The notes beneath the pieces are model-generated. The model ran no database searches. It was not told where the DNA came from and was given only the letters and a program-made list of their open reading frames with translations. Made by a program: the position numbers and the translations under genes. DNA of 17,653 nucleotides. Origin: a virus (taxonomy: Duplodnaviria; Heunggongvirae; Uroviricota; Caudoviricetes). Location of the stretch: IMG/VR virus record IMGVR_UViG_2526164631_000015, positions 1 through 17,653 of that record; one strand, given 5' to 3'. The first letter of the stretch is position 1. Each line of letters begins with the position of its first letter. This document shows, in pieces, positions 698 to 16,059 of the stretch.

Positions 698-2205
698 TCA
701 TGGCATGGCCATGAGCATTTTCACGTCCGCATCACCGTCTGCTGACGTCTGTGGCACGCCACCCTGTACCGCTGCCGGTGAATGGTTCGCCATGATGCGT
801 TCAAACAGGGCGGTTGTGGATGCAGAGACCGGTTCTGCCTTACCTGATCCCGCAGCCAGCACAGCCCGGGCGCTCTCCACAGTCATTCCCGGGCAGGCAG
901 CCAGCTGTTCAGCCTGCGCCTCAGCCCCTTTTGCCTCATCCAGTGCCATGATCTGATCACGGAGTGAGGGTCCGGCATCCGCCTGCGGTGAAGCAGCCAG
1001 GATCGGGCGGGCTTTTTCCACCGTCATCTCCGGCATCGCCGCCAGCGTTGCCGCCAGTTGTTCACGACCGTTCGCTTCTTCACACGCCATAATGCGATCG
1101 GCTTCACTCTGCGTGGATGCCACCGGCTGCTGCGGTGCCGCCGCGGCCAGAATCGCCCGGGCCTGTTCAACGCTCATGCCCTGTTGTCCTGCCAGCATCG
1201 TGGCAAGCTGTTCACGTCCTTTCGCTTCCTGGCATGTCAGGATCCCCATCACTCGCTGGTTCTCCTGCGCGGCGGCTTCCGTTGCAGTTAATTGCGGCAT
1301 AGTGCCTCCTCTGACATTACTGTTCAGCGCCGTGGCCATCACACTGATGGCATCCGACGCATTGACTAATTCATCCGCCAGCCCGGCATCAATGCCGGAC
1401 TGACCTTCAAAAACGGCGGCCTCTGTTCCCGTGACGGCATCAACAGACAGACCGGTAAACATGGCCACTTTTTCGGCAAACATCCGGCGCGCCGCATCAA
1501 TGCGCTGCTGCATGTCCTGGCGAACCTCTGCCGGTAAGGCTTCAAACTGATTGCCATCCACCTTGTGCGCCCCCTGACGTAAATCAGCGTGATATCCACA
1601 CCGGCCTGCGCCAGATGACCGGCATAGCTGACATGGCTCATCATCACGCCAATGGAGCCGATACGGGATGTCTGGGTAACCAGCCGTCGGGAGCAGGCCG
1701 ACGCCAGCAGCATGGCTGCAGAACAGGCCGTGTCATTGCACAGTGCCCAGACCGGCTTCTGCTGACGGAGGCGGTAAATCATGTCAGCGCAGTCAAACGC
1801 GCCGGCGGCCTGCCCGCCCGGACTGTCAATGTCCAGCAGTATGCCCCGCACCTGGCTATCTGCCATTGCCTGCTGAAGACAGGCGACAATGCCGTCATAG
1901 CCAGTCATTCCGGAAAATGGCCGCATCCCCCCCAGCCGGTGCACCAGCGTGCCGGTCACCGGCAGTACCGCAATACCGTTCACCACCCGGTAAACACGGG
2001 CCGGTCGTTTACCTCCGGCCATGTACTCGTCCGTTTCAGCCAGCATTCCGGGAGCATCAAACTGTACCTGCTGTTGTGGTACCGAAAGACTTGATGCCCC
2101 CATCTCGCGCCCGAGCGCGCAAAAGAAAACCCGCGCATAGGCGGGCTCCAGAAGCAGCGGTTCATTGAATGCTGCGGCAATAATGTGTGAAAGATTACGT
2201 CTCAC
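698..2205 (-). pseudogene. C: Head maturation protease (S49/ClpP-like, lambda gpC homolog) with C-terminal Nu3-like scaffold region; reading frame broken near 1565-1575, giving ORFs 1366..2205 and 698..1561
   Basis: ORF 1366..2205 matches the lambda gpC N-terminal protease domain (AFNEPLLLEPAYARVFFCAL...GIAVLPV.GTLV...SGMTGY.GI...VWAL.ND...RRLVTQT...GSIGVMM...ITLIY). ORF 698..1561, in another frame, continues the gpC/Nu3 homology (VDGN...FAEKVAMFTGLSV...TEAAVF.GQ..IDAGLADELVN). The switch coincides with a run of five C on the plus strand (1570-1574). This may be a true frameshift or a homopolymer sequencing error. Confidence 0.55.
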
Positions 2206-3785
2206 GGGGTGTTGTCTCCTCTTCCGGCCTGCGACTCTCCGCTATCTGCTGCTGATACGCCTGCGCTATCCACACCGGACGTGAGAGTCCGGCTTTTTGC
2301 CGCTCAGCAGATTCCCTGACCTGCTGGCGGAAAATGTCCTGATAATCCTCGCCCATCAGCGCCAGCTCTTTCTCATACGTGCTCAGTCCGGCCTCAATGC
2401 GCATCACTGATTCCTGGACTTCCTTGAGCCCGTCAATGGCCATTCTTCCGGCTCCAATCCACTCAGCCCGTGACCAGGCTGATCGCGCCTGATAAAAATC
2501 AAAACGCGCCCGTGGCGGACGAATAATCCCCCGAAGAAGTGCCTCTTCCAGCCAGCAGGAAAACATCTGCGTGGCCAGCCGGGACGCAATAAATTTTCGT
2601 CGTCCCATAAAATAGCGCCACGACTCATTGGCGGAGGCGCGGGCACTTGAATAACTGACCTTCGAGTAATCCCGGGACAACTGTTCGTAGGAAACGCCAA
2701 GACCGGCGGCGATATACCGCAGCAGCGCCTGTTCAAGCGCCGAAAATCCATTGTCTGAATCCTGCGCGGTCTGAAGTTTCAGATCATCACCGGGGAAAAG
2801 GTGCGGAATTTTGACACCACCCAGCGTCACGCTATTCGTGTCATACCAGGTGGAGAACTTATCCAGAATATTAATAAGCGGATTATCCTTCTGCCCCTGC
2901 GGCGCACCGGCGATATATTCAAAGGCCTTTTCGGTATCAAGGTCACTTTCAATCGTCGCTGCATACATCGCCTTCACTATGGCCGACTGAAGCTGTGTTG
3001 CCTGCAGGGAATCGAGCATCTTCAGCCGTTCCATTACGCTGTAAAACTGATTGGCCCCACGGGTCTGCCCGTCCTCCACCGGCTCGAAAATATGCAGCAT
3101 GGCCGGACGCCCGGTGGAAGTTCACGCGGGATCCGTTCCCATCGTCCACTCCCGGAGACGGAAAATCATCCTCACAGATATGGTACGCAACGGCACGACC
3201 ATATCGATCGACCTCCACACCGGCCCGCAGAAAACGGTTCCCCATACCGTGTCCTGGCGTGTCCACCCGTTTCGGACTCACGGCTTTAAAACGCGTACGA
3301 AACAGTTGCGTGCTCTCCGTATCCCAGACCGGCTGCACAAAGATTTCGCCGTTAAACGCATGAACGCCCACACCTTCACGGATAAATTCCGTAAACGTGC
3401 GTTTCCCTTCCACGTCGATCTCGCCAGACATCCCTTCGGCGTATTCCGACCAGGCCGCCTCCACCTCATCGACAAAACTTTTTGCTGCAGTCTCCCGCAT
3501 CTCCAGCCAGCGCCAGTTCGGACGGTAGCTGATCAGAAACATATGCCCGACAATATGATCCTTATGCAGGGCCACCGCATTGGCCGCTATCCCGTTATTG
3601 CGCACCAGATCATCTGCACGGGCATTCCCCAGACGCAACGCGGGCAACAGGGCCGCATCGGCACTCTGCGCCGGTGGCAACCACTCCGCCATTTGCCCGC
3701 CAAATCCTGCACCGCCCCCGTTGTAGCTGAGGCTCTCCCGAAGCGGAACACCGTTCACATCAATCAGGACAGGCGTTCGTTTCAT
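2195..3785 (-). pseudogene. B: Portal protein (lambda gpB homolog), interrupted: ORFs 2949..3785 and 2195..3100 overlap in different frames
   Basis: The N-terminal ORF (MKRTPVLIDVNGVPLRE...GGGAGFGGQ...NARADDLVRNNG...HAFNGEIFVQ) and the C-terminal ORF (...HIFEPVEDGQTRGAN.FYSVME...YSSARASANESW.YFMGRRKF...MAIDGLKEVQE) each align with lambda gpB. Between about 3100 and 3160 the homology jumps frame and an in-frame TGA appears. Confidence 0.6.
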
Positions 3786-3987: not shown

Positions 3988-5899
3988 TCACTCCTCCGGA
4001 CAGCTTCGCTGCCAGTTCTTTCAGGGTTGGCCGGGTCGTCTCTTCTTCCCGGGATTTTGCCAGTACAGCCAGATCAAGCTGCCAGCGTTGCACGGACACA
4101 CGTAATGCCGCGTAGGCATACACCAGGCAGTCCAGCGCTTCGTTACGCCGCTTTTTGTTATCCCACAGCAGACGCATCTTTCCTTTTTCCCACTTCTCCA
4201 CAAGCTCTTCCGCGACCAGTTGCTGCGCCTCTGTCTGCGAAAAAATCTCCGGATCATCAGGAAAACGGATGGCATACGACGTGGCTTCATCCGCAGGAGT
4301 GGGATCGGCTTTCATACGGGCATAGAGAATTTCTTTTGCGGTGTCCGTCCCCACTTCACACAGATACACGCCCCGCTGATTGCGGGTTTTCGGCATGGTG
4401 ATCACCGGCTTGCCATAGACAGATGCGCCTTTTACCGGCAGCACCCGGAAAACACCGTGTTTTTTTGACCTCTGATAGACAATTTCACCATCGATCCCCC
4501 CGGTGTCCCAGCAGACACGGGAAATGGTCATTTCGGTTCCGTCTGCATGGCAGTATTTTTTGTTGATCGCCGCATCCACACGTAACAGCGTCTCTTCCTC
4601 ATCGGGACGGCCCATAATGATGATTTTATCCACCAGAAAAGCTTCCTCTCCCGGTGCCCATCCCCAGACATACATCTCAAAACGGTTTCGCTGCGAGTCA
4701 ATGCCCGCCGTCAGATAAACCACCCGGGCAGGTACCGCCGCCGTGTAATGCACGACCTTATCCATCAGTACCTGGTGATCGAGTTTTTCGCCCACGGCTT
4801 CTTCCCAGGTCTCGCCCAGCGTGGTGTTCACAAAGGTTTTCAGGCCGTTGGGATCTTTCAGTGCATCCAGCCAGTCATAGACTATCTGTACCCAGGTGGT
4901 AAACGGACTGTACGCCGTCCAGATATGGAACGTGATGGAGCGCGGCGGCGGAATTTCATCACCCCGGGCGCTGAAAAACGTCAGACCGTCACGGGTCCAC
5001 ATGCCCGTGTTTTCACAGATCCACCGCCCGTTGCTCTGGTCCAGTTCAGACTGATGGATCACGCAGCCATGATGTTCACAGAGGTAGAAAACACTTTCGG
5101 GGCTGTCCTTCTCCCATTTAAGCCCAAAAGGCGTGGACTCATCACCAAATTTCAGATACTGCGCCTCCCCACAGTGCGGGCAGGGCACATAAAAACGCAT
5201 AAAATGCGCCGACTCGTTAGCGGCTTTTTCGATCTGGCAGGTGCCTTTGATTTTAGGCGTCGAGCCGCGAATGGATTTTGGCCACACCGACCCCTCAATA
5301 CGCTTATCCCCCAGCAGGGTTGGCGAGCCCTCTTTTTCGACATCCGGCTCGAACGAGGAAAGTTCGTCATAGCAGACCACGTCCACGGATTTTTCACGGT
5401 AGTTTTTGGCGGCAGCGCCGCCCAGGCACCAGAAACCGACGCCCGATGAAAAGCGTTTCAGCGTGAGAGTATTGTCACGATGTTTACGCCCCAGCCATGG
5501 GGAAAGGTCTTTCAGGCATGGCACGTTCCGAATCGTCGCCTCCACGTGAGACTTCATAAAATCTTCAGCGGCAGAATCCGTGGGCTGAAAAAGCAGACTG
5601 TTTCGGGATTTATGCTCAATAAAATACCCGACCACCCCCAGCAACATCTTTGTATAGCCAACACGGGCAGATTTAATCAGGTTAACCGTGCGAACCTGGT
5701 CGTTACCCATACAGTTCATAATGGCGATCTGGAATGGCAGCGTTTTCCATTCTCCCTCACCATATGAAGATTCTTTAGGCAGATAATAATTTTGATCAGC
5801 CCATTCAACTGCCGTCATTGGTACAACCCTGACCAGAGGCTGCAGCGCAACCGAAACGGCAGCCATCATATTATTCAGTTGTTGCTCTGATATATTCAT
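3971..5899 (-). CDS. A: Terminase large subunit (lambda gpA homolog)
   Basis: Long intact ORF. From the internal Met, MNISEQQLNN...TAVEWADQNYYLPKESSYGEGEWKTLPFQIAIMN...KSARVGYTKMLLGV...GGAAAKNYREKSVDVVCYDELS...GSVWPKSIRGSTPK...CPHCGE.QYLKFGD...TAYSPFTTWVQIV...NTTLGETWE...KKRRNEALDC.VYA is collinear with lambda gpA. Start chosen at ATG 5897-5899 by homology; the ORF track begins 57 nt further upstream. Confidence 0.9.
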   Translation of the reverse strand: MNISEQQLNNMMAAVSVALQPLVRVVPMTAVEWADQNYYLPKESSYGEGEWKTLPFQIAIMNCMGNDQVRTVNLIKSARVGYTKMLLGVVGYFIEHKSRNSLLFQPTDSAAEDFMKSHVEATIRNVPCLKDLSPWLGRKHRDNTLTLKRFSSGVGFWCLGGAAAKNYREKSVDVVCYDELSSFEPDVEKEGSPTLLGDKRIEGSVWPKSIRGSTPKIKGTCQIEKAANESAHFMRFYVPCPHCGEAQYLKFGDESTPFGLKWEKDSPESVFYLCEHHGCVIHQSELDQSNGRWICENTGMWTRDGLTFFSARGDEIPPPRSITFHIWTAYSPFTTWVQIVYDWLDALKDPNGLKTFVNTTLGETWEEAVGEKLDHQVLMDKVVHYTAAVPARVVYLTAGIDSQRNRFEMYVWGWAPGEEAFLVDKIIIMGRPDEEETLLRVDAAINKKYCHADGTEMTISRVCWDTGGIDGEIVYQRSKKHGVFRVLPVKGASVYGKPVITMPKTRNQRGVYLCEVGTDTAKEILYARMKADPTPADEATSYAIRFPDDPEIFSQTEAQQLVAEELVEKWEKGKMRLLWDNKKRRNEALDCLVYAYAALRVSVQRWQLDLAVLAKSREEETTRPTLKELAAKLSGGVNGYSR

Positions 5900-8435: not shown

Positions 8436-8873
8436 TCATCGAAGGCATTGCGTCCTAATGTACTCCTGCAAGTAGTTAACCTGCGCGGTTATCCTGTCGA
8501 TTCCACTTCGGAGACGGTAATAATTGAGTTCAGCATCTGCTGTAAGTCCTGGGGTTTCTCCATTGCCCATGCCGCTGGCTCCGGTCGTTGACTTTGCACA
8601 GGTGGCGGCGACTTGCAGGCGCTTACGCCCAGCAGAAACATCAGCACGGAGACTTTCGATAGTCGCATTAGCATCAGCAAGCTCCTTTGTGTATCTGGCG
8701 TCAAGTTCTGCTACATCACGTTGCCGCTTCTGCATATCAGCGATGATGGATGTGGCTTTATCGCGCTGCTCTTTGTAGGCGATGGCGTTATCACGGTAAT
8801 GATTAACAGCCCATGAAAGGCAGACGATGAGGCAGATGACCAGAACGTAGATAATCGCGGTTACTCTGCTCAT
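8436..8873 (-). CDS. Rz: Spanin inner-membrane subunit (i-spanin) Rz
   Basis: [39 protein letters not shown]...[19 protein letters not shown] is near-identical in pattern to lambda Rz ([39 protein letters not shown]...). The ATG at 8871-8873 overlaps the R stop (ATGA). Confidence 0.9.
8489..8674 (-). CDS. Rz1: Spanin outer-membrane lipoprotein subunit (o-spanin) Rz1, embedded in the +1 frame of Rz
   Basis: Signal peptide with lipobox ([20 protein letters not shown]) followed by a Pro-rich mature part ([21 protein letters not shown]), wholly inside Rz in another frame as in lambda. Confidence 0.8.
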
Positions 8874-9367
8874 TGTTGCCCCCACAAACAGACTTCACGC
8901 TCAATCTCACGGCGAGTCATCAGCCCTTTCCATTGCTTACCGCCAGCGTATGTCCAGCGCCGTAGCTGATCACATGCGCCTTTGATATCGCCCTGGTTTA
9001 TTTTGCGAAGAAGCGTCGATGTTCTGAAATTGCCAGCGCCCACGTTGTAAACGAACGAGTAAAGAGCGCCGCGCGTTGTTTCCGGTATATCGACGTTGAT
9101 GTACGGGTTTATTTGTCTGGCGACCGTGGCAAGGTCTTTATTCAGGAGGGCTTTGCATTCTGCTTCGGTATACGTTTTACCGGGCATGATGTCTTTTCCG
9201 GTGTGTCCGTGACATACAGTCCATACGCCAACGATATCTTCGTATGGTATGTAGCTGACACCTTCCAGGCCATCGTCACCACTCGGACCAGTGATGAGCA
9301 CAGACGCTATGGCAACAGCCCCACCACCAATAGCAGCAGCAACAGCCTTGCGTAATGACGGCGACAT
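8870..9367 (-). CDS. R: SAR (signal-anchor-release) endolysin, phage lysozyme, phage-21 R type
   Basis: N-terminal SAR domain ([24 protein letters not shown]) followed by a lysozyme core ([21 protein letters not shown]...). Matches phage 21 R as recalled. Confidence 0.9.
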
Positions 9368-9573
9368 TATTCACCTCTCGCAGCCTTACGCTTATCTTCT
9401 TTAATCTTGAAATAAAGGTTTGTCAGATACGTCAGCAGGCCAAACAGCAGACTCCCCAGCACACCTATTGCCACCCACTGGGACGGAGAGACTTTGTCCA
9501 GCAGCTGCAGTAACCAGTATCCCGTCCCCACCGCTGACGTGGTGTATGACACACCTGTTGTGATTTTTTCCAT
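9367..9573 (-). CDS. S: Pinholin (phage-21 S21 type holin)
   Basis: 68-aa product with two TMDs and a charged C-terminus ([68 protein letters not shown]). Resembles S21 and sits immediately upstream of the SAR endolysin. Confidence 0.85.
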
Positions 9574-9829
9574 CTGATGTATGTCTCCGTCACCGCCGAC
9601 AGAAAATGAAAGTAAAGAAAAACAAAAAAGCCGCCAGTGTCACCCACTGACGGCCAACGCCGGGAGCCGTGATTATGGCATTCAGGCTCTGCTAAAAATG
9701 CCAGATAACATTCCGGCCAACCCCTGATTCAGGTTATAAATGACACAATATCTTGACAACATCCGTCACTGTCTGTCAGAAAATGTACTGCCAAGTATAA
9801 GTATCATGTGAAGTACATCTACCCGTTTT

Positions 9830-9866
9830 AGCCAGCGTCCTTCAGAGTGGGCGCTGGCTTTTTTTA
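9830..9866 (+). terminator. Intrinsic-terminator-like hairpin oriented on the plus strand, directly abutting the nanS-p stop codon
   Basis: Stem AGCCAGCGTCC / GGGCGCTGGCT (about 11 bp, one G-U), loop TTCAGAGT, followed by TTTTTTT on the plus strand. On the minus strand the run is A, so it does not terminate the late transcript. Confidence 0.55.
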
Positions 9867-11732
9867 TTATGCTGCCGGTGCATTTATCTCCAGCACCAGA
9901 CTTTCTATCTCAACACCATACGCTGCATTTTTGGTAATATCCGTCAGCGTCAGCGCATTCAGCCCCAGTGTCAGACTGTCTTTTATGACCTGGAATGCCG
10001 GGCCAGCCACTCCATTCAGTTTCGGAGTAACCGTGGCACTGCCGGCGGTGAACACCAGTTCCAGCGTCTGCCAGTCATTACTGTAATTCCCGAACTCGCC
10101 CAACTTTGTGTTTCCTGCTTTCTTGTGATGCATCAGATTCAGTTTGCCGTCTGTGGTCTGGGTGAAGAACGACATCAGGAACGGGTTACCAGTCCCGGTC
10201 ATCGCCACGACGTCAGGTAACGCTACATCGGTATACAGATAAATTCCCAGGCCGAACTGGTTGTTGGTCAGTGCGCCTGACAGTCGAAACTTACAGCTCA
10301 GTCTGCCACCCCGTGTCAGCAGGGAGACTGCGTCATCCACCGGATGCATCAGGGACCAGGTTTTATTGCTCTGCTTGGCGATCTTAAATACACCACCCGA
10401 CAACTGAATTCCGCCGTCCTTAATGGTCCAGCCCTGCGCAGCAGCCTCTCCGGCTGTCGGCAACAGGGAGATTGTGCGTACGGATGCATCTTCAGACGGC
10501 CCCGATGGCGTGTTGCCGCCGGGCGAGGGTTTGATTTCCGGTGCCTTACCACTGATGAAAGCTGAGGTGCGCCCGGCTGCGTTCAGAATAGCGGTTGCCA
10601 TACGATCCGGAATAATGCTCCTGCGCGCCCATGAACTGAAATGTGTCGGGCGGTTTGATGATACCTGGTTTCCATTCGTTCTCGATGCCGCACCGTAATA
10701 TCCTGATGCCGGAATATCCGGATCTTCTGCCGGTGCGTTAGTGGCGGTATTGACGCCGTTACCGTCTGTCATGAAGGGCACAAAATAAACGCCCTCACTC
10801 TCCCTGTTTTTATACCCGCCGTACACGGTGTCGTACTGGGTAGCGTATGTATTTTTCCAGTAATACGTCGTGTCACCACAAATCCACGGCACATTTACAG
10901 CACTGCCACCATGACACTGCGCGTTAAACACAGTGAGGTCAGCACGAAACTGCTTCAGCATGGCTGTAAACAGCGCAGGTTGCTGTGCGTAGGTGGCGGC
11001 GCTCATGTCAAACTCTCCCTGCATCCAGCACACCGCCAGCAACACATTTTTCGGGTTCTTCTGTAATGCAGCTTTAGTGCGCGCAATCAGGTCCTGATAT
11101 AACGGTTTACCCACCCCCCAGCGCGCCGAATCCTGGCTGGCCCCCGCGTCCGCACTGAATGTCCCCTCCGCGCCCTGGGTGAATGCCGAACCACCACGAC
11201 AGCATGGTACCAGCAGGATCCCCGCGTTATTCGGGATATACGGGAGCAGTTTTTTGGCAATATGTAAGCCCTGGCCGACACAGCCGTACTGCCCTTTGCT
11301 CAGGTCTGCCTTCGGATGATTCAGCGTACTCATATCCTGCACATCATGCAGACAGTGGTCAGCCGGGATGATGTCGTTATACGTACAACTCTCTCCACCC
11401 GGAGTTACCGTGCTGCGGCGCGCCAGCTGTTTAATGCGCGGATCCGGAGCATCGTAAGAATCCGGTAACGGAAGCCCTTCACCGTAGGCCATGCCGTTGG
11501 ACTGTCCGGCAAGCACAACCACGTAGAACCAGTCCGGCTCAGTTGCACCACTGACGACCACATCACCTTCTGCTGCAATCGCCTGCATCAGGGTATAAGG
11601 GGTTATGGCCACCGGACTACCAAACGGCTGCCAGCCCTCTTTCAGTTTATGTGTCAGCTTTTCCGCAAGATCTGACGGCGACGCCGCCCTGACAACATCA
11701 TAGTGTTTAAATGCCATGGTTCTTTCCACCAT
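9867..11732 (-). CDS. nanS: Prophage sialate O-acetylesterase (NanS-p-like; SASA/SGNH esterase domain with C-terminal extension)
   Basis: 621-aa ORF with the catalytic-serine GQSN motif (VVLAGQSNGMAYG) typical of SASA-family sialate O-acetylesterases. Position between the tRNA/toxin locus and the lysis genes matches the nanS-p (yjhS-like) gene of Stx-type phages. Confidence 0.8.
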   Translation of the reverse strand: MVERTMAFKHYDVVRAASPSDLAEKLTHKLKEGWQPFGSPVAITPYTLMQAIAAEGDVVVSGATEPDWFYVVVLAGQSNGMAYGEGLPLPDSYDAPDPRIKQLARRSTVTPGGESCTYNDIIPADHCLHDVQDMSTLNHPKADLSKGQYGCVGQGLHIAKKLLPYIPNNAGILLVPCCRGGSAFTQGAEGTFSADAGASQDSARWGVGKPLYQDLIARTKAALQKNPKNVLLAVCWMQGEFDMSAATYAQQPALFTAMLKQFRADLTVFNAQCHGGSAVNVPWICGDTTYYWKNTYATQYDTVYGGYKNRESEGVYFVPFMTDGNGVNTATNAPAEDPDIPASGYYGAASRTNGNQVSSNRPTHFSSWARRSIIPDRMATAILNAAGRTSAFISGKAPEIKPSPGGNTPSGPSEDASVRTISLLPTAGEAAAQGWTIKDGGIQLSGGVFKIAKQSNKTWSLMHPVDDAVSLLTRGGRLSCKFRLSGALTNNQFGLGIYLYTDVALPDVVAMTGTGNPFLMSFFTQTTDGKLNLMHHKKAGNTKLGEFGNYSNDWQTLELVFTAGSATVTPKLNGVAGPAFQVIKDSLTLGLNALTLTDITKNAAYGVEIESLVLEINAPAA

Positions 11733-11977
11733 CTGAAAAATAATTCTTTAAAATACCTGACATGTAATACAGAAAAAACACAAAACCATACCTTAAATAA
11801 AAACCTCATCATCAAGCAGATATGCATGGATAAACTACAAGACGAGATATAAACCACCCTGCATTTAAATAAACAATAAACAACATCAGAAAAATAATTC
11901 TGCTCTATGGTTTACAATCAAAAATATCATTTATACTTTTCAGAACATCACCAGCAAGGCATAAACAAGGAAACTAA

Positions 11978-12313
11978 ATGAAGTGGATTGTGATTGATAC
12001 AGTTATCCAGCCATCATGCGGAATATCTTTTTCAGTCATATGGAGTAAAATAAAATTAATAATCTGGTATCAATCGGATGCTTTCTTACCTCCTGAAAGT
12101 ATATTTACACTGACTCACACAGGTATCATGCTCAATAACAAAGTGCTACCTGTAACCATTTACAACGTAGTACCATTCAATAAAACATTCTGGAATTTAA
12201 TCAAAAACAGCCAGGAATGCCCTACAAATACAGATAACGTATTGAATGAATGCTTTAATAACCGTTGCACTCTGCAAATATGTCCTTATGGGCTAAAACA
12301 ACAAAGTCCATAA
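11978..12313 (+). CDS. Hypothetical protein, 111 aa, Cys-rich C-terminus; cargo gene antisense to the late operon
   Basis: ATG preceded by a strong RBS (AAGGAAACTAAATG). Candidate sigma70 promoter upstream (TTTACA ... TATACT around 11912-11940). About 33% GC. No recognisable family by eye. Confidence 0.45.
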
Positions 12314-12332
12314 GGAGTTTACTCACATCTGA

Positions 12333-12369
12333 CAAAATCAATATAAACAGCCCCTCCGGAGAGGGGCTG
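12333..12369 (-). terminator. Intrinsic-terminator-like hairpin on the minus strand (stem CAGCCCCTC / GAGGGGCTG, loop CGGA, then TTTATATTGATTTTG on the minus strand)
   Basis: GC-rich 9-bp stem with a T-rich tract on the minus strand only. Lies within the cargo block and adjacent to the 3' end of the plus-strand 111-aa ORF. Confidence 0.5.
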
Positions 12370-12745
12370 GAGAGTGGCGCTATGTGCCATTGCATGGTGC
12401 CGGGTGCCTCCCGGTGAATTCAGTACCAGCACCTGAATCCGCGATTATCCCATATACCTACTCGCTGATTGCCCCTCCGCACAGGTGGATTCACCATGCC
12501 AGTTTCTTTTAACAAACTCCCCGCAAACCAGACAACAGTCAACCGCCTGAATTGTGAAGTATTTAAAAATTTCTCCGGCTAACAGTCTGGCGTTTTCTTT
12601 TTCAGCAACGGGAAAGCAACAACCACCACACCCGCCACCAGTACACAGTCAGCCAGCACTGACATTATCCGGCTGCTGCAATGCCATTCACAAAAACAGT
12701 AAGCAATCACTTTTTACCGTAACAGGTGATAATCCAGATATGTAT

Positions 12746-13072
12746 CTACCCCAGATGAGTAATCCGAAGTTCATCCATACCACAGGTCCTGGCTATTCTG
12801 TTGTACTCCTGAACAAGAGCAAATAATTCTGAATTAGCAACCATGAACTCATCGCAAACCCTCTGTATAGCATCACTATTCAGAATAATAACGTCTCTTC
12901 CCAAAAGACGATCAGGAGTACAGAACAAAACTGTCAAACGGCTGAAGGCCTTTGCTCGTGCTGCATTGACTATATCAATACGCTGCCTAAGGATGAAACA
13001 CCCCGACGCCTCATCAATATTCACTCTACCCACACCATATGAATGATAAATATTTAATACTGAAAAAACCAT
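12746..13072 (-). CDS. Hypothetical protein (about 108 aa from ATG 13070-13072; ORF track starts at TTG 13099); coding status uncertain
   Basis: Open frame in the cargo block with no convincing RBS and no recognisable motifs. Confidence 0.25.
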   Translation of the reverse strand: MVFSVLNIYHSYGVGRVNIDEASGCFILRQRIDIVNAARAKAFSRLTVLFCTPDRLLGRDVIILNSDAIQRVCDEFMVANSELFALVQEYNRIARTCGMDELRITHLG

Positions 13073-13209
13073 TAGACCGTATAACAAACACTCAATCAAT
13101 ACTTAACAGAACTTTTATTTTTGACAAACATATAATATTTTCAACAATATACTGAGCCAGGTATATTCCAGTATAAGGCTCTGCCGGAAGAAATCTGGAA
13201 GAATGAATA

Positions 13210-13286
13210 TGGCGCGTTGTACTGGATTCGAACCAGTGACCGATTGCTTAGAAGGCAATTGCTCTGTCCGGCTGAGCTAACAACGC
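13210..13286 (-). tRNA. tRNA-Arg (anticodon UCU)
   Basis: Minus-strand sequence GCGTTGTTAGCTCAGCCGGACAGAGCAATTGCCTTCTAAGCAATCGGTCACTGGTTCGAATCCAGTACAACGCGCCA folds as a canonical cloverleaf: 7-bp acceptor, GCTC/GAGC D-stem, anticodon loop CTTCTAA, T-loop TTCGAAT, encoded CCA. Confidence 0.85.
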
Positions 13287-13298
13287 ATAATGCAGATA

Positions 13299-13375
13299 AT
13301 GGATTGCCATCGGGGACCCGGGCCCCACACAGCCAGTTTCGAAAGCTGACGCTCTCTGCCGATGAGCTAATGGCG
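13299..13375 (-). tRNA. tRNA-like element, probably degenerate tRNA-Arg (UCG-like anticodon); non-canonical T-loop and two acceptor-stem mismatches
   Basis: Minus-strand sequence CCGCCATTAGCTCATCGGCAGAGAGCGTCAGCTTTCGAAACTGGCTGTGTGGGGCCCGGGTCCCCGATGGCAATCCA has TA at positions 8-9, a GCTC/GAGC D-stem, an anticodon loop TTTCGAA and a terminal CCA. Acceptor pairs 1-72 and 2-71 are C-A mismatches and the T-loop is CCCGGGT rather than TTCRANT. Confidence 0.4.
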
Positions 13376-13383
13376 GTATGTGA

Positions 13384-13459
13384 TGGTGGCCCTTGCTGGA
13401 TTTGAACCAGCGACCTGGCGATTATGAGTCGCTCGCTCTCACCACTGAGCTAAAGGGCC
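13384..13459 (-). tRNA. tRNA with CAU anticodon, ileX/ileZ-like (tRNA-Ile2, lysidine type) or Met
   Basis: Minus-strand sequence GGCCCTTTAGCTCAGTGGTGAGAGCGAGCGACTCATAATCGCCAGGTCGCTGGTTCAAATCCAGCAAGGGCCACCA is a canonical cloverleaf. The anticodon stem-loop GCGACTCATAATCGC matches E. coli ileX as recalled. Confidence 0.85.
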
Positions 13460-13508: not shown

Positions 13509-14558
13509 TCAAACGATTAAATCCTGAACTTCCCTGACTGTCTGTTCAAAACGTCCTGTCTCCAGCTCAACACCAATCGCACAACGCCCCAGTGCCATCG
13601 CCGCTTTTACCGTTGAACCTGAACCCATAAAAAAATCTGCAACCAGGTCTCCCGGACGACTGCTCGCGTTGATTATCTGCTGCAGCATTTCTGCCGGTTT
13701 TTCGCACGGATGTTTCCCTGGATAGTACTGCACCGGTTTATGCGTCCAGACATCGGTGTACGGAACCTGCGCCGTCACACCGAAATACCGCCGCAAATTT
13801 TTATATTCACTCAGCAGTTCCGTATACTGCCGGTTCAGCTCACTGTATGTGCTGACCAGCTGGTGGTGTGGCTTTTCCAGTTCCCCGCGCTGATGTTTTT
13901 CTGCCGCAACACGCGCAAACAACGCCTGCAATTTGTTGTAATTACCCTCGTTCGGTAACTGCCACTGACTGGTACCAAACCAGTGCGAAGCCATGTTTTT
14001 CTTTCCGGTGGCTTCCGCTATCTGTTTTGACGTTATTCCCAGTGATTTACGCGCATCACGAAAGTAAGAAATCAGCGGGGCCATGACGTGCTGTTTTAGC
14101 TCGCGCCCCTGTGCCACATAGCCATCATCTTTCGGGCGATACGGTCCCTGATAATGTTCTGCAAACAGAATGCGCTCTGTTGCCGGAAAATACGCCCGCA
14201 GACTTTCCTTATTGCACCCGTTCCAGCGTCCGGACGGCTTCGCCCAGATAATGTGGTTCAGCACATTAAAGCGCTCACGCATCATGATTTCGGTGTCAGA
14301 TGCCAGGCGATGACCACAGAACAGGTAAAGACTTCCGGCAGGCTTCAGTACCCGCCAGAACTGCGCCAGACACTGGTCCAGCCATTTCAGGTAATCATCG
14401 TCGCCCTCCCACTGGTTATCCCAGCCCTCGGGCTTCACTTTAAAGTATGGCGGGTCTGTGACTATCAGATCGACAGAGTTTTCCGGTAAGGTCTGGATAA
14501 ATTCCAGGCAATCAGCGTTGATTAACTCACAACTGGATATTTTTACAGTATTAATCAT
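13509..14558 (-). CDS. DNA methyltransferase, beta-class amino-MTase (N6-adenine or N4-cytosine); orphan, no cognate endonuclease in the window
   Basis: 349-aa ORF with motif IV DPPY near the N-terminus (LIVTDPPYF) and motif I FxGxG near the C-terminus (DFFMGSGSTV), the circularly permuted order of beta-class MTases. Confidence 0.85.
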   Translation of the reverse strand: MINTVKISSCELINADCLEFIQTLPENSVDLIVTDPPYFKVKPEGWDNQWEGDDDYLKWLDQCLAQFWRVLKPAGSLYLFCGHRLASDTEIMMRERFNVLNHIIWAKPSGRWNGCNKESLRAYFPATERILFAEHYQGPYRPKDDGYVAQGRELKQHVMAPLISYFRDARKSLGITSKQIAEATGKKNMASHWFGTSQWQLPNEGNYNKLQALFARVAAEKHQRGELEKPHHQLVSTYSELNRQYTELLSEYKNLRRYFGVTAQVPYTDVWTHKPVQYYPGKHPCEKPAEMLQQIINASSRPGDLVADFFMGSGSTVKAAMALGRCAIGVELETGRFEQTVREVQDLIV

Positions 14559-14918: not shown

Positions 14919-15029
14919 TTTCCGGTTAACGTGACATACCAATAACTCTTGTCGAAAAAGCCAGCAAGTTGAAAGACCGGTATTAGCAACCACCAGCGCG
15001 TTTAACGCCCCGTGCCGTTTTTCAGTCAT

Positions 15030-15051
15030 AAAAAAACCCGCAAAAAGCGGG
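15030..15051 (-). terminator. Intrinsic terminator on the minus strand about 80 bp downstream of the Q-like gene (tR'-like)
   Basis: Minus-strand RNA GCCCGC-UUUUU-GCGGG followed by U7. The position mirrors the lambdoid Q-pR'-tR' arrangement. Confidence 0.6.
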
Positions 15052-15130
15052 CTCTTTCAAATGTCCATGTCTGCTATTCGCCTCGCGGTACAGCTTTGCT
15101 AAGCTTACCGGAATTGAAGCAGTTTTTACG

Positions 15131-15697
15131 TCAAAAAGCAATAACTTTTTTCTCTATACCAAAAGCCATAACCATTGGTTTGTACAAAATAAATTCTGCC
15201 ACCTTTAGCCAATGCTCAATGCGTCTTTCACAGGTTCTTAAACTCCATTCCGGATGTGCATCATTCAGCAGTTCAGCCATTTTGCGCTTAGTCATCCCCC
15301 GCCCCACATAACGCTGACTCAGAACATTGAGCAGCCCGGGATAACCTGCCAGTACTTCACCAATAACCCTGTCGATTATTAACGCCTCTGAATCGGTACA
15401 ATGTGCCAGCCAGCTTTTTTGATTGCCGTTGATCATATCCCGCAAAAAAGCCTCAAGTTCAGGTTTGTCCAGACCCGCTTTTTTCATCCTCCGGAGCGCC
15501 TCGTTAATTGCCGTTTTTGTCAGCTTTTTAGAGGTCAGTAATTGGTTGAACATATTTCCCGTCTTACCGTCGCCAATATACGACCAACGCCCCCACATAC
15601 GCAGTTTCCCCTGGATCCAGACACTTTCCAGCGTTTTCAGGCGTAAATGCTCACCGCTTTTGCCTGTAATTTCCGGGTATATCATATTTATGCTCAC
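15131..15697 (-). CDS. Putative late-gene antiterminator (Q-like), assigned mainly by synteny
   Basis: 188-aa ORF immediately downstream of rusA and upstream of a short terminated leader, as for lambdoid Q genes. Contains a W-G-x-W motif region (RMWGRWS) reminiscent of some Q families. Start may be GTG 15695-15697 or ATG 15683-15685. Confidence 0.5.
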   Translation of the reverse strand: MSINMIYPEITGKSGEHLRLKTLESVWIQGKLRMWGRWSYIGDGKTGNMFNQLLTSKKLTKTAINEALRRMKKAGLDKPELEAFLRDMINGNQKSWLAHCTDSEALIIDRVIGEVLAGYPGLLNVLSQRYVGRGMTKRKMAELLNDAHPEWSLRTCERRIEHWLKVAEFILYKPMVMAFGIEKKVIAF

Positions 15698-16059
15698 TCA
15701 CTTTCAATTTTGTAAATCTTCACGCCCAGCCGCCCACCAGAAACGAGCTGACCGCGCACAATATTGATTTCATCAAACTGCTCGTCGTCTATAAGTAGTC
15801 CGGCATGCGTAAGCGCATCCAGTGGTGCCTTCAGGATATTGTCCAGGTCGCGGCGGCGCTTATCCGGTGGCTCTGCAATAATCTTTATCGCCAGCCTTCC
15901 GGACAGGTTTAATTTCAGCCACTGCTGGCGAACAATAAGCGCCACATCACGGCGATAACGCTCACCGGCTTTTGACACAAAATATGTGCTGCCACGACGT
16001 CGCCAGTAAGTGTTCACCGTCGGCGGGTAAGGCAAAACAAATTCTATGCGTTCAGTCAT
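15694..16059 (-). CDS. rusA: Holliday junction resolvase RusA (crossover junction endodeoxyribonuclease)
   Basis: 121-aa ORF. LPYPPTVNTYWRRRG...AGERYRRDV...PPDKRRRDLDNILKAPLDALTHAGLLIDDEQ aligns with E. coli RusA (LPWPPSNNRYYR...[30 protein letters not shown]). Confidence 0.9.
   Translation of the reverse strand: MTERIEFVLPYPPTVNTYWRRRGSTYFVSKAGERYRRDVALIVRQQWLKLNLSGRLAIKIIAEPPDKRRRDLDNILKAPLDALTHAGLLIDDEQFDEINIVRGQLVSGGRLGVKIYKIESE

Follow-up and report, generated by a model that had tools for sequence, protein, structure and literature searches.

The RssB anti-adaptor IraL was described in Escherichia coli CFT073, where the gene was renamed iraL by Hryckowian et al. in 2014 (PMC4045071) and where, in our comparison, it lay on the potB island flanked by a DUF3927 gene and a DUF1737 fragment. 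IraL co-purifies and interacts with RssB through an RssB contact limited to the N-terminal domain, and it is 58.9% identical to K-12 IraM and binds RssB differently (PMC4045071). Deletion of iraL in CFT073 halved the log-phase half-life of RpoS, and iraL supplied with its native promoter raised log-phase RpoS in K-12 (PMC4045071). The gene has its own mapped sigma-70 transcription start, which is used in uninduced log-phase cells (PMC4045071), and the level of IraL was increased in a CFT073 fur mutant (PMC7157518). A second described element is the STnc100 sRNA, which is located downstream of stx2 (PMC12370729) and whose family has been described both there and in prophage late regions (PMC12370729, PMC12711010, bioRxiv 10.64898/2026.05.13.724894). 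STnc100 partly overlaps EcOnc27/sRNA103, a reported Hfq-binding sRNA (PMC12711010), and several STnc100 copies are transcribed in EDL933, one of them confirmed by Northern blot (PMC5331693). Zhu, Shabalina and Storz have argued that STnc100 and PasD share a common ancestor (bioRxiv 10.64898/2026.05.13.724894); PasD1 and PasD2 are sRNAs of EPEC E2348/69 (PMC8550237; bioRxiv 10.64898/2026.05.13.724894).

We compared these systems with a phage locus contained in a 17,653-nucleotide stretch of DNA, hereafter the window. The phage late region occupied the minus strand of the window in the order Q-like gene, methyltransferase, tRNAs, a 1.5 kb slot, nanS-p-type esterase and lysis genes. Pfam searches placed the DUF1133/Phage_antitermQ (Q-like) gene at 15131-15697, an N6_N4 (N6/N4) DNA methylase at 13509-14558 and the esterase, composed of DUF1737, SASA and DUF6645 domains, at 9867-11732, all on the minus strand. 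The slot itself (11733-13209, 1,477 bp) lay between the tRNAs and the esterase, which formed its downstream boundary, and the lysis genes encoded on the same strand were a holin (9367-9573), a lysozyme (8870-9367) and Rz (8436-8885). The first-pass annotation of this DNA had noted a low-GC block in the slot, and this was borne out by a GC content of 0.30-0.35 over 11700-12300 compared to 0.50-0.59 in the flanks. The same annotation had placed a tR'-like terminator after Q. A 106-aa minus-strand ORF between the Q-like gene and the methylase did end in a terminator-like hairpin (14722-14705), but this was the single such site between the two genes, against a mean of 0.9 in shuffled sequence. It is no more than chance expectation. 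At the far end of the esterase, a 78-nt plus-strand sequence (9788-9865) was 100% identical to PasC of EPEC E2348/69, an Hfq-dependent sRNA validated there by Northern blot (coordinates from PMC8550237). The 3' end of this copy fell 1 nt short of the esterase stop codon; the two are convergent, and the copy ended in a hairpin followed by a T run.

The slot recurred with 100% identity in a prophage of E. coli O111:H2 strain 12A and with 99.7% identity in prophage PP5 of EPEC E2348/69, and the potB prophage of CFT073 had the same layout at 96.9% identity over 1.9 kb. Among 5,426 complete E. coli genomes, 863 contained at least 80% of the slot. The RefSeq labels over it were 'anti-adapter protein IraM', 'hypothetical protein' and 'DUF3927 family protein'. 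We are confident, although short of certain, that it represents a mosaic 'moron' module already known from lambdoid E. coli prophages that lack stx, of the E2348/69 PP5 / CFT073 potB type, and that it is composed of two transcriptional halves. The module is already described and common: iraL, the STnc100 family and their placement relative to stx have all been published. What we add consists of sequence identities, family memberships and positions, the function of IraL having been demonstrated elsewhere on an identical protein.

Over its whole length the window was 98.8% identical to the 12A prophage, from which it was distinguished by single-base indels at 1574, 1578, 3117, 3158 and 3934. Two genes that are unbroken in 12A were split by such indels, namely the S49 protease gene (ORFs 698-1561 and 1366-2205) and the portal gene (ORFs 2195-3100 and 2949-3785). 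These frameshifts reflect either a decaying prophage or sequencing indels. Mismatches to 12A were unevenly spread, 175 of the 200 being concentrated in 1 kb (15000-16000) around the Q-like gene, so that this DUF1133 gene is another allele, exchanged within a prophage that is almost unchanged elsewhere.

Alignment with the Stx2 phage 933W supported the Stx-phage late architecture proposed in the first-pass annotation. The tRNAs, STnc100 and the start of the esterase were in common, with identities of 88.6% in the tRNA region, about 70% in STnc100 and 85% at the esterase start, and the tRNAs (ileZ-argN-argO in 933W), STnc100, the esterase and the lysis genes (S, R and Rz in 933W) were arranged alike in order and orientation. 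The window thus has the late-region order of a Stx-converting phage (Q, tRNAs, cargo slot, STnc100, nanS-p, lysis) but is without stxA and stxB. A tblastn search of the window with 933W Stx2A and Stx2B gave a best E of 0.66, in agreement with the first-pass statement that the slot holds no stx-like ORF, and no slot ORF matched a toxin family in Pfam. The interval from the tRNAs to STnc100 is occupied by stxA2B2 in 933W and by a 92-aa ORF (ORF92) and a DUF3927 gene in the window. The 933W STnc100 copy (207.7 bits) follows stxB2 by 75 nt and is directly followed by AsxR on the opposite strand, whereas the window has iraL and its AT-rich promoter where 933W has AsxR. The two further differ in the Q gene, which is of another type (DUF1133) in the window, and in the methyltransferase that the window carries between Q and the tRNAs.

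The plus-strand ORF that had been pointed out in the first pass was present (11978-12313) and encodes an RssB anti-adaptor of the IraM family, as judged by identity, NCBIfam and a PDB match. Its product was identical at 111 of 111 aa to the CFT073 potB-prophage protein WP_000871291.1, against the at least 95% identity over the whole coding region by which IraL was defined (PMC4045071). It scored 162 bits against the IraM subfamily model NF007393 of NCBIfam (cut-off 121), matched the IraM chain of PDB 8twd with an E of 9.1e-32 and had 20 positions differing from K-12 IraM over residues 1-78. In CFT073 and S. sonnei, the identical protein has been found to bind RssB and to prolong the half-life of RpoS (PMC4045071). 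The RefSeq name for IraL of CFT073 is 'anti-adapter protein IraM'. The likeness to the CFT073 locus extended from IraL to its promoter and its neighbours (tRNAs, DUF3927 and STnc100), but in CFT073 only a DUF1737 fragment is left of the esterase and none of the three tRNAs has decayed.

An AT-rich spacer (11733-11910, GC 0.30) separated the iraL promoter from the start of the esterase gene and was nearly invariant when the window, CFT073, E2348/69 and phage 640R1 were aligned. The promoter and a 33-nt leader followed on the plus strand at 11911-11977, and apart from a few bases the promoter region was that of CFT073. The published 5' RACE sequence of the iraL mRNA, ACATCACCAGCAAGGCATAAACAAGGAAACCA (PMC4045071), was found at 11945-11976 with one mismatch, placing the transcription start at 11945. 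We read TTTACA (11911-11916) and TATACT (11932-11937) as putative -35 and -10 hexamers; they are only 15 nt apart. The orientation of iraL is antisense to late transcription. Together with the gene's own sigma-70 promoter, this argues that iraL is a moron expressed in the lysogen rather than cargo driven by induction, and the first-pass proposal that genes at this position are highly expressed on prophage induction fails for iraL, given a start used in uninduced log-phase cells (PMC4045071). For the minus-strand parts of the slot, high expression on induction is plausible. In an Hfq RIL-seq data set from EPEC, the iraL mRNA (E2348C_1245; NC_011601 1288353-1288689) formed 11 chimeras with Spot 42 (p = 2.2e-5). 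The presence of the mRNA in these chimeras indicates that iraL is expressed in EPEC, and the Spot 42 partner hints at sRNA control of iraL. The portion of these tables that was covered had no entry for the PP5 copy of STnc100, which does not count against its presence there.

Adjacent to iraL, on the minus strand, was an STnc100-family sRNA gene (12339-12528), which matched the full Rfam model RF02076 (positions 1-206) with 123.6 bits against a gathering score of 47. Two further features from the first pass are accounted for by this gene. The GC-richer structured segment corresponds to the STnc100 match, within which the stretch 12339-12499 folded with z = -2.7 compared to shuffled sequence, and the internal terminator was recovered by a terminator scan as a 9-pair stem (12369-12348) followed by TTTATATT. 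The gene occupies the same position as STnc100/EcOnc27 of Stx2 phages, between the stx slot and nanS-p, and like them ends in a terminator hairpin and U tract, but it scored lower than the 933W copy (123.6 vs 207.7 bits) and is preceded by DUF3927 rather than stxB. The same synteny of DUF3927 gene, sRNA and esterase surrounds PasD2 of the E2348/69 prophage PP2. PasD and the window share the 5' core GCATGGTGAATCC and a GGGAGGC segment, but PasD2 fell below the STnc100 gathering score, a blastn-short search with PasD2 found no match in the window, where only the core blocks aligned, and the published PasD seed region was not conserved in the alignment. In view of the 99.7% identity to E2348/69, we had suspected that the STnc100 match was PasD2 itself. 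This was rejected, as the published loci place PasD2 in PP2 and PasD1 in PP4, the window corresponds to PP5, and there was no BLAST match.

The core in common with PasD2 began at the mapped PasD2 5' end GCATGGTGAATCC, which aligned to window position 12499, and a conserved TGTTAAAA motif lay upstream of the sRNA core at 12514-12506, where the window reads TGTTAAAAG. By analogy with PasD2, drawn from alignment of the conserved cores only, the sRNA would start near 12499 from its own promoter upstream and give an RNA of about 150-160 nt. A 25-codon ORF, MVNPPVRRGNQRVGIWDNRGFRCWY, lies inside STnc100 on the minus strand (12423-12497) and begins at the conserved core GCATGGTG; ribosome footprints have been reported on some EDL933 STnc100 copies (PMC5331693). 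A related prophage contig carried two STnc100 copies, at 1344-1556 and 4650-4839, one after a TolA-like gene and the other after a 56%-identical ORF92 homologue, with an AraC-type regulator and an IS3 element between them.

These results bear on the first-pass view, in which the slot carries a new cargo for fitness or virulence, its function unknown, that is switched on from the late promoter upon induction in the manner of stx. The slot is indeed equivalent in position to stxAB, and ORF92 and the DUF3927 gene, both co-directional with late transcription, are without an assigned function. The largest ORF, however, encodes the characterized IraL, antisense and with its own promoter, the structured segment belongs to a described sRNA family, and the block is common and annotated in RefSeq. 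With an IraL identical at every residue, a described STnc100 family and 863 matching genomes, the slot is a common and already characterized module, and we consider a novel late-driven cargo highly improbable.

The position occupied by stxAB in 933W is filled in the window by ORF92, a minus-strand ORF of 92 aa with a GTG start (12746-13024) that belongs to phrog_2873 (E 5.7e-57, residues 1-92 on profile positions 17-108). The first-pass annotation had the end of this ORF right, at 12746, but its start is most likely GTG 13024 and not 13072. Homologues of a longer form of the ORF (ORF117) were found at 55-59% identity and then at 30-44%. Those homologues that are neither extended nor cut off were 91-95 aa long, of similar length and with conserved columns, and their first residue aligned with GTG 13024 or lay no more than about five residues away, which makes a 92-aa product the most likely one. 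An AlphaFold2 model of ORF92 (pLDDT 89.3) predicted a helix / beta-hairpin / helix arrangement, for which a fold search of the PDB returned weak generic helical-hairpin or prefoldin-like matches (best E 0.03) and none at E <= 0.001; ORF92 likewise had no match in Pfam, NCBIfam or PADLOC.

Next to ORF92 was a gene overlooked in the first pass, which encodes a small hydrophobic peptide of the DUF3927 family (12579-12710, minus strand). It matched Pfam PF13064 at an E of 8.1e-26, with 90.2 bits against a gathering score of 25, and also phrog_1470, labelled 'TciB-like' in the category moron; a literature search on 'TciB' returned only unrelated papers. The peptide would have 43 aa if begun at the GTG; the start chosen by RefSeq in E2348/69 is an internal ATG, which gives 28 aa. 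RefSeq annotates a 'DUF3927 family protein' in CFT073, E2348/69 and 12A, with a start codon choice that varies by strain.

We also weighed whether ORF92 and the DUF3927 ORF are non-coding, the minus-strand stretch being a long sRNA leader and only iraL and the sRNA being functional. The ORF92 region was matched in 1,186 genomes, yet no RefSeq feature lay over ORF92 under the full-length matches listed, the ribosome-binding sites are weak, and the RefSeq starts of DUF3927 differ between strains. Close ORF117 copies had only 2-4 substitutions, mostly non-synonymous, and thus gave no sign of recent purifying selection. Such a reading would nevertheless have to accommodate protein homologues of similar length and with conserved columns down to 30% identity, a confident structure model, membership of ORF92 in a PHROG family and a DUF3927 match far above the Pfam threshold. 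We regard it as very unlikely, and the homologues argue that ORF92 represents a real gene family.

Upstream of ORF92 the first-pass annotation had counted three tRNAs. Two of these were confirmed as intact on the minus strand by ARAGORN and Rfam: a tRNA with anticodon CAU (13384-13459, Rfam 72.5 bits), whose identical gene is labelled tRNA-Ile (ileZ type) by RefSeq in E2348/69 and 12A, and a tRNA-Arg(UCU) of argO type (13210-13286, 70.1 bits). The middle one proved to be a decayed relic of a tRNA-Arg(UCG) at the argN position (about 13300-13376, minus strand), which aligned to the CFT073 tRNA-Arg(tcg) with substitutions in the D, anticodon and T arms. It was missed by ARAGORN and by Rfam even at E 0.1, whereas the CFT073 copy was detected, leaving only two intact tRNAs in the window.

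The decay of the middle tRNA is one of several observations that would fit the slot being a scar left by loss of stxAB from a Stx phage and not an alternative cassette. The flanks formed by the tRNAs, STnc100 and esterase are common to 933W, the indels that split the portal and S49 protease genes suggest a degenerating prophage, and Zhu et al. have proposed a Stx-phage ancestry for related sRNA loci (bioRxiv 10.64898/2026.05.13.724894). However, what fills the stx position is not a deletion junction but unrelated coding DNA, namely ORF92 and DUF3927 with a length of about 630 bp. Moreover, a 38%-identical homologue of ORF92 occurs in another, distantly related prophage in the order Q ... ORF92 family, TerB-like, DUF3927, holin, so that the pairing and its position are old and the arrangement is independent of stx. 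A scar of toxin loss is in our judgement unlikely, and we favour the moron module.

On the moron-module reading, the slot would work as two halves of opposite polarity. The first, co-directional with the late operon, would consist of ORF92, the DUF3927 peptide and STnc100 and end at the intrinsic terminator of the sRNA. The STnc100 RNA would probably arise from its own promoter just upstream, and could in addition be processed out of late RNA that reads through the slot; as with EcOnc27/sRNA103 and PasD, to which it is related, it would be Hfq-associated and base-pair with targets in trans. In the second half, on the opposite strand, a sigma-70 promoter of its own within the AT-rich spacer would drive iraL in uninduced lysogens, with transcription starting at 11945. 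IraL would then sequester RssB, which would block the delivery of RpoS to ClpXP, raise RpoS in exponential growth and leave the host pre-armed against stress. After induction, as expected from lambdoid biology, Q-modified polymerase would transcribe ORF92 and DUF3927, pass the terminator and continue antisense to iraL as far as the esterase and lysis genes, and we infer that ORF92 and DUF3927 are expressed.

A more speculative extension is that lambdoid late regions contain a conserved functional cassette made up of ORF92, the DUF3927 peptide and STnc100. The idea arises from the prefoldin-like helical hairpin of ORF92, from its lack of RefSeq annotation in the matching genomes listed, and from the recurrence of ORF92-family and DUF3927 genes together just upstream of lysis genes in distant prophages. 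Its products could possibly be expressed late and modulate the timing of lysis, the state of the envelope or superinfection, with the sRNA released from the 3' end. We hold this idea tentatively and think it rather doubtful. If it were true, stxAB would be a replacement of the protein part of an older cassette.

The remaining functional interest of the slot lies only in ORF92 and the DUF3927 peptide, which are small, widespread hypothetical phage proteins. For annotation, the locus shows IraL labelled 'IraM' in RefSeq and, exactly where stx would lie, a conserved gene of 92 aa without RefSeq annotation in the full-length matches listed. For the host, the prophage supplies a factor that stabilizes RpoS in log phase together with at least two Hfq-type sRNA loci, STnc100 and, just downstream, PasC. 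Should ORF92 and the DUF3927 peptide have a function, it would reveal the role of the toxin slot's ancestral occupant.
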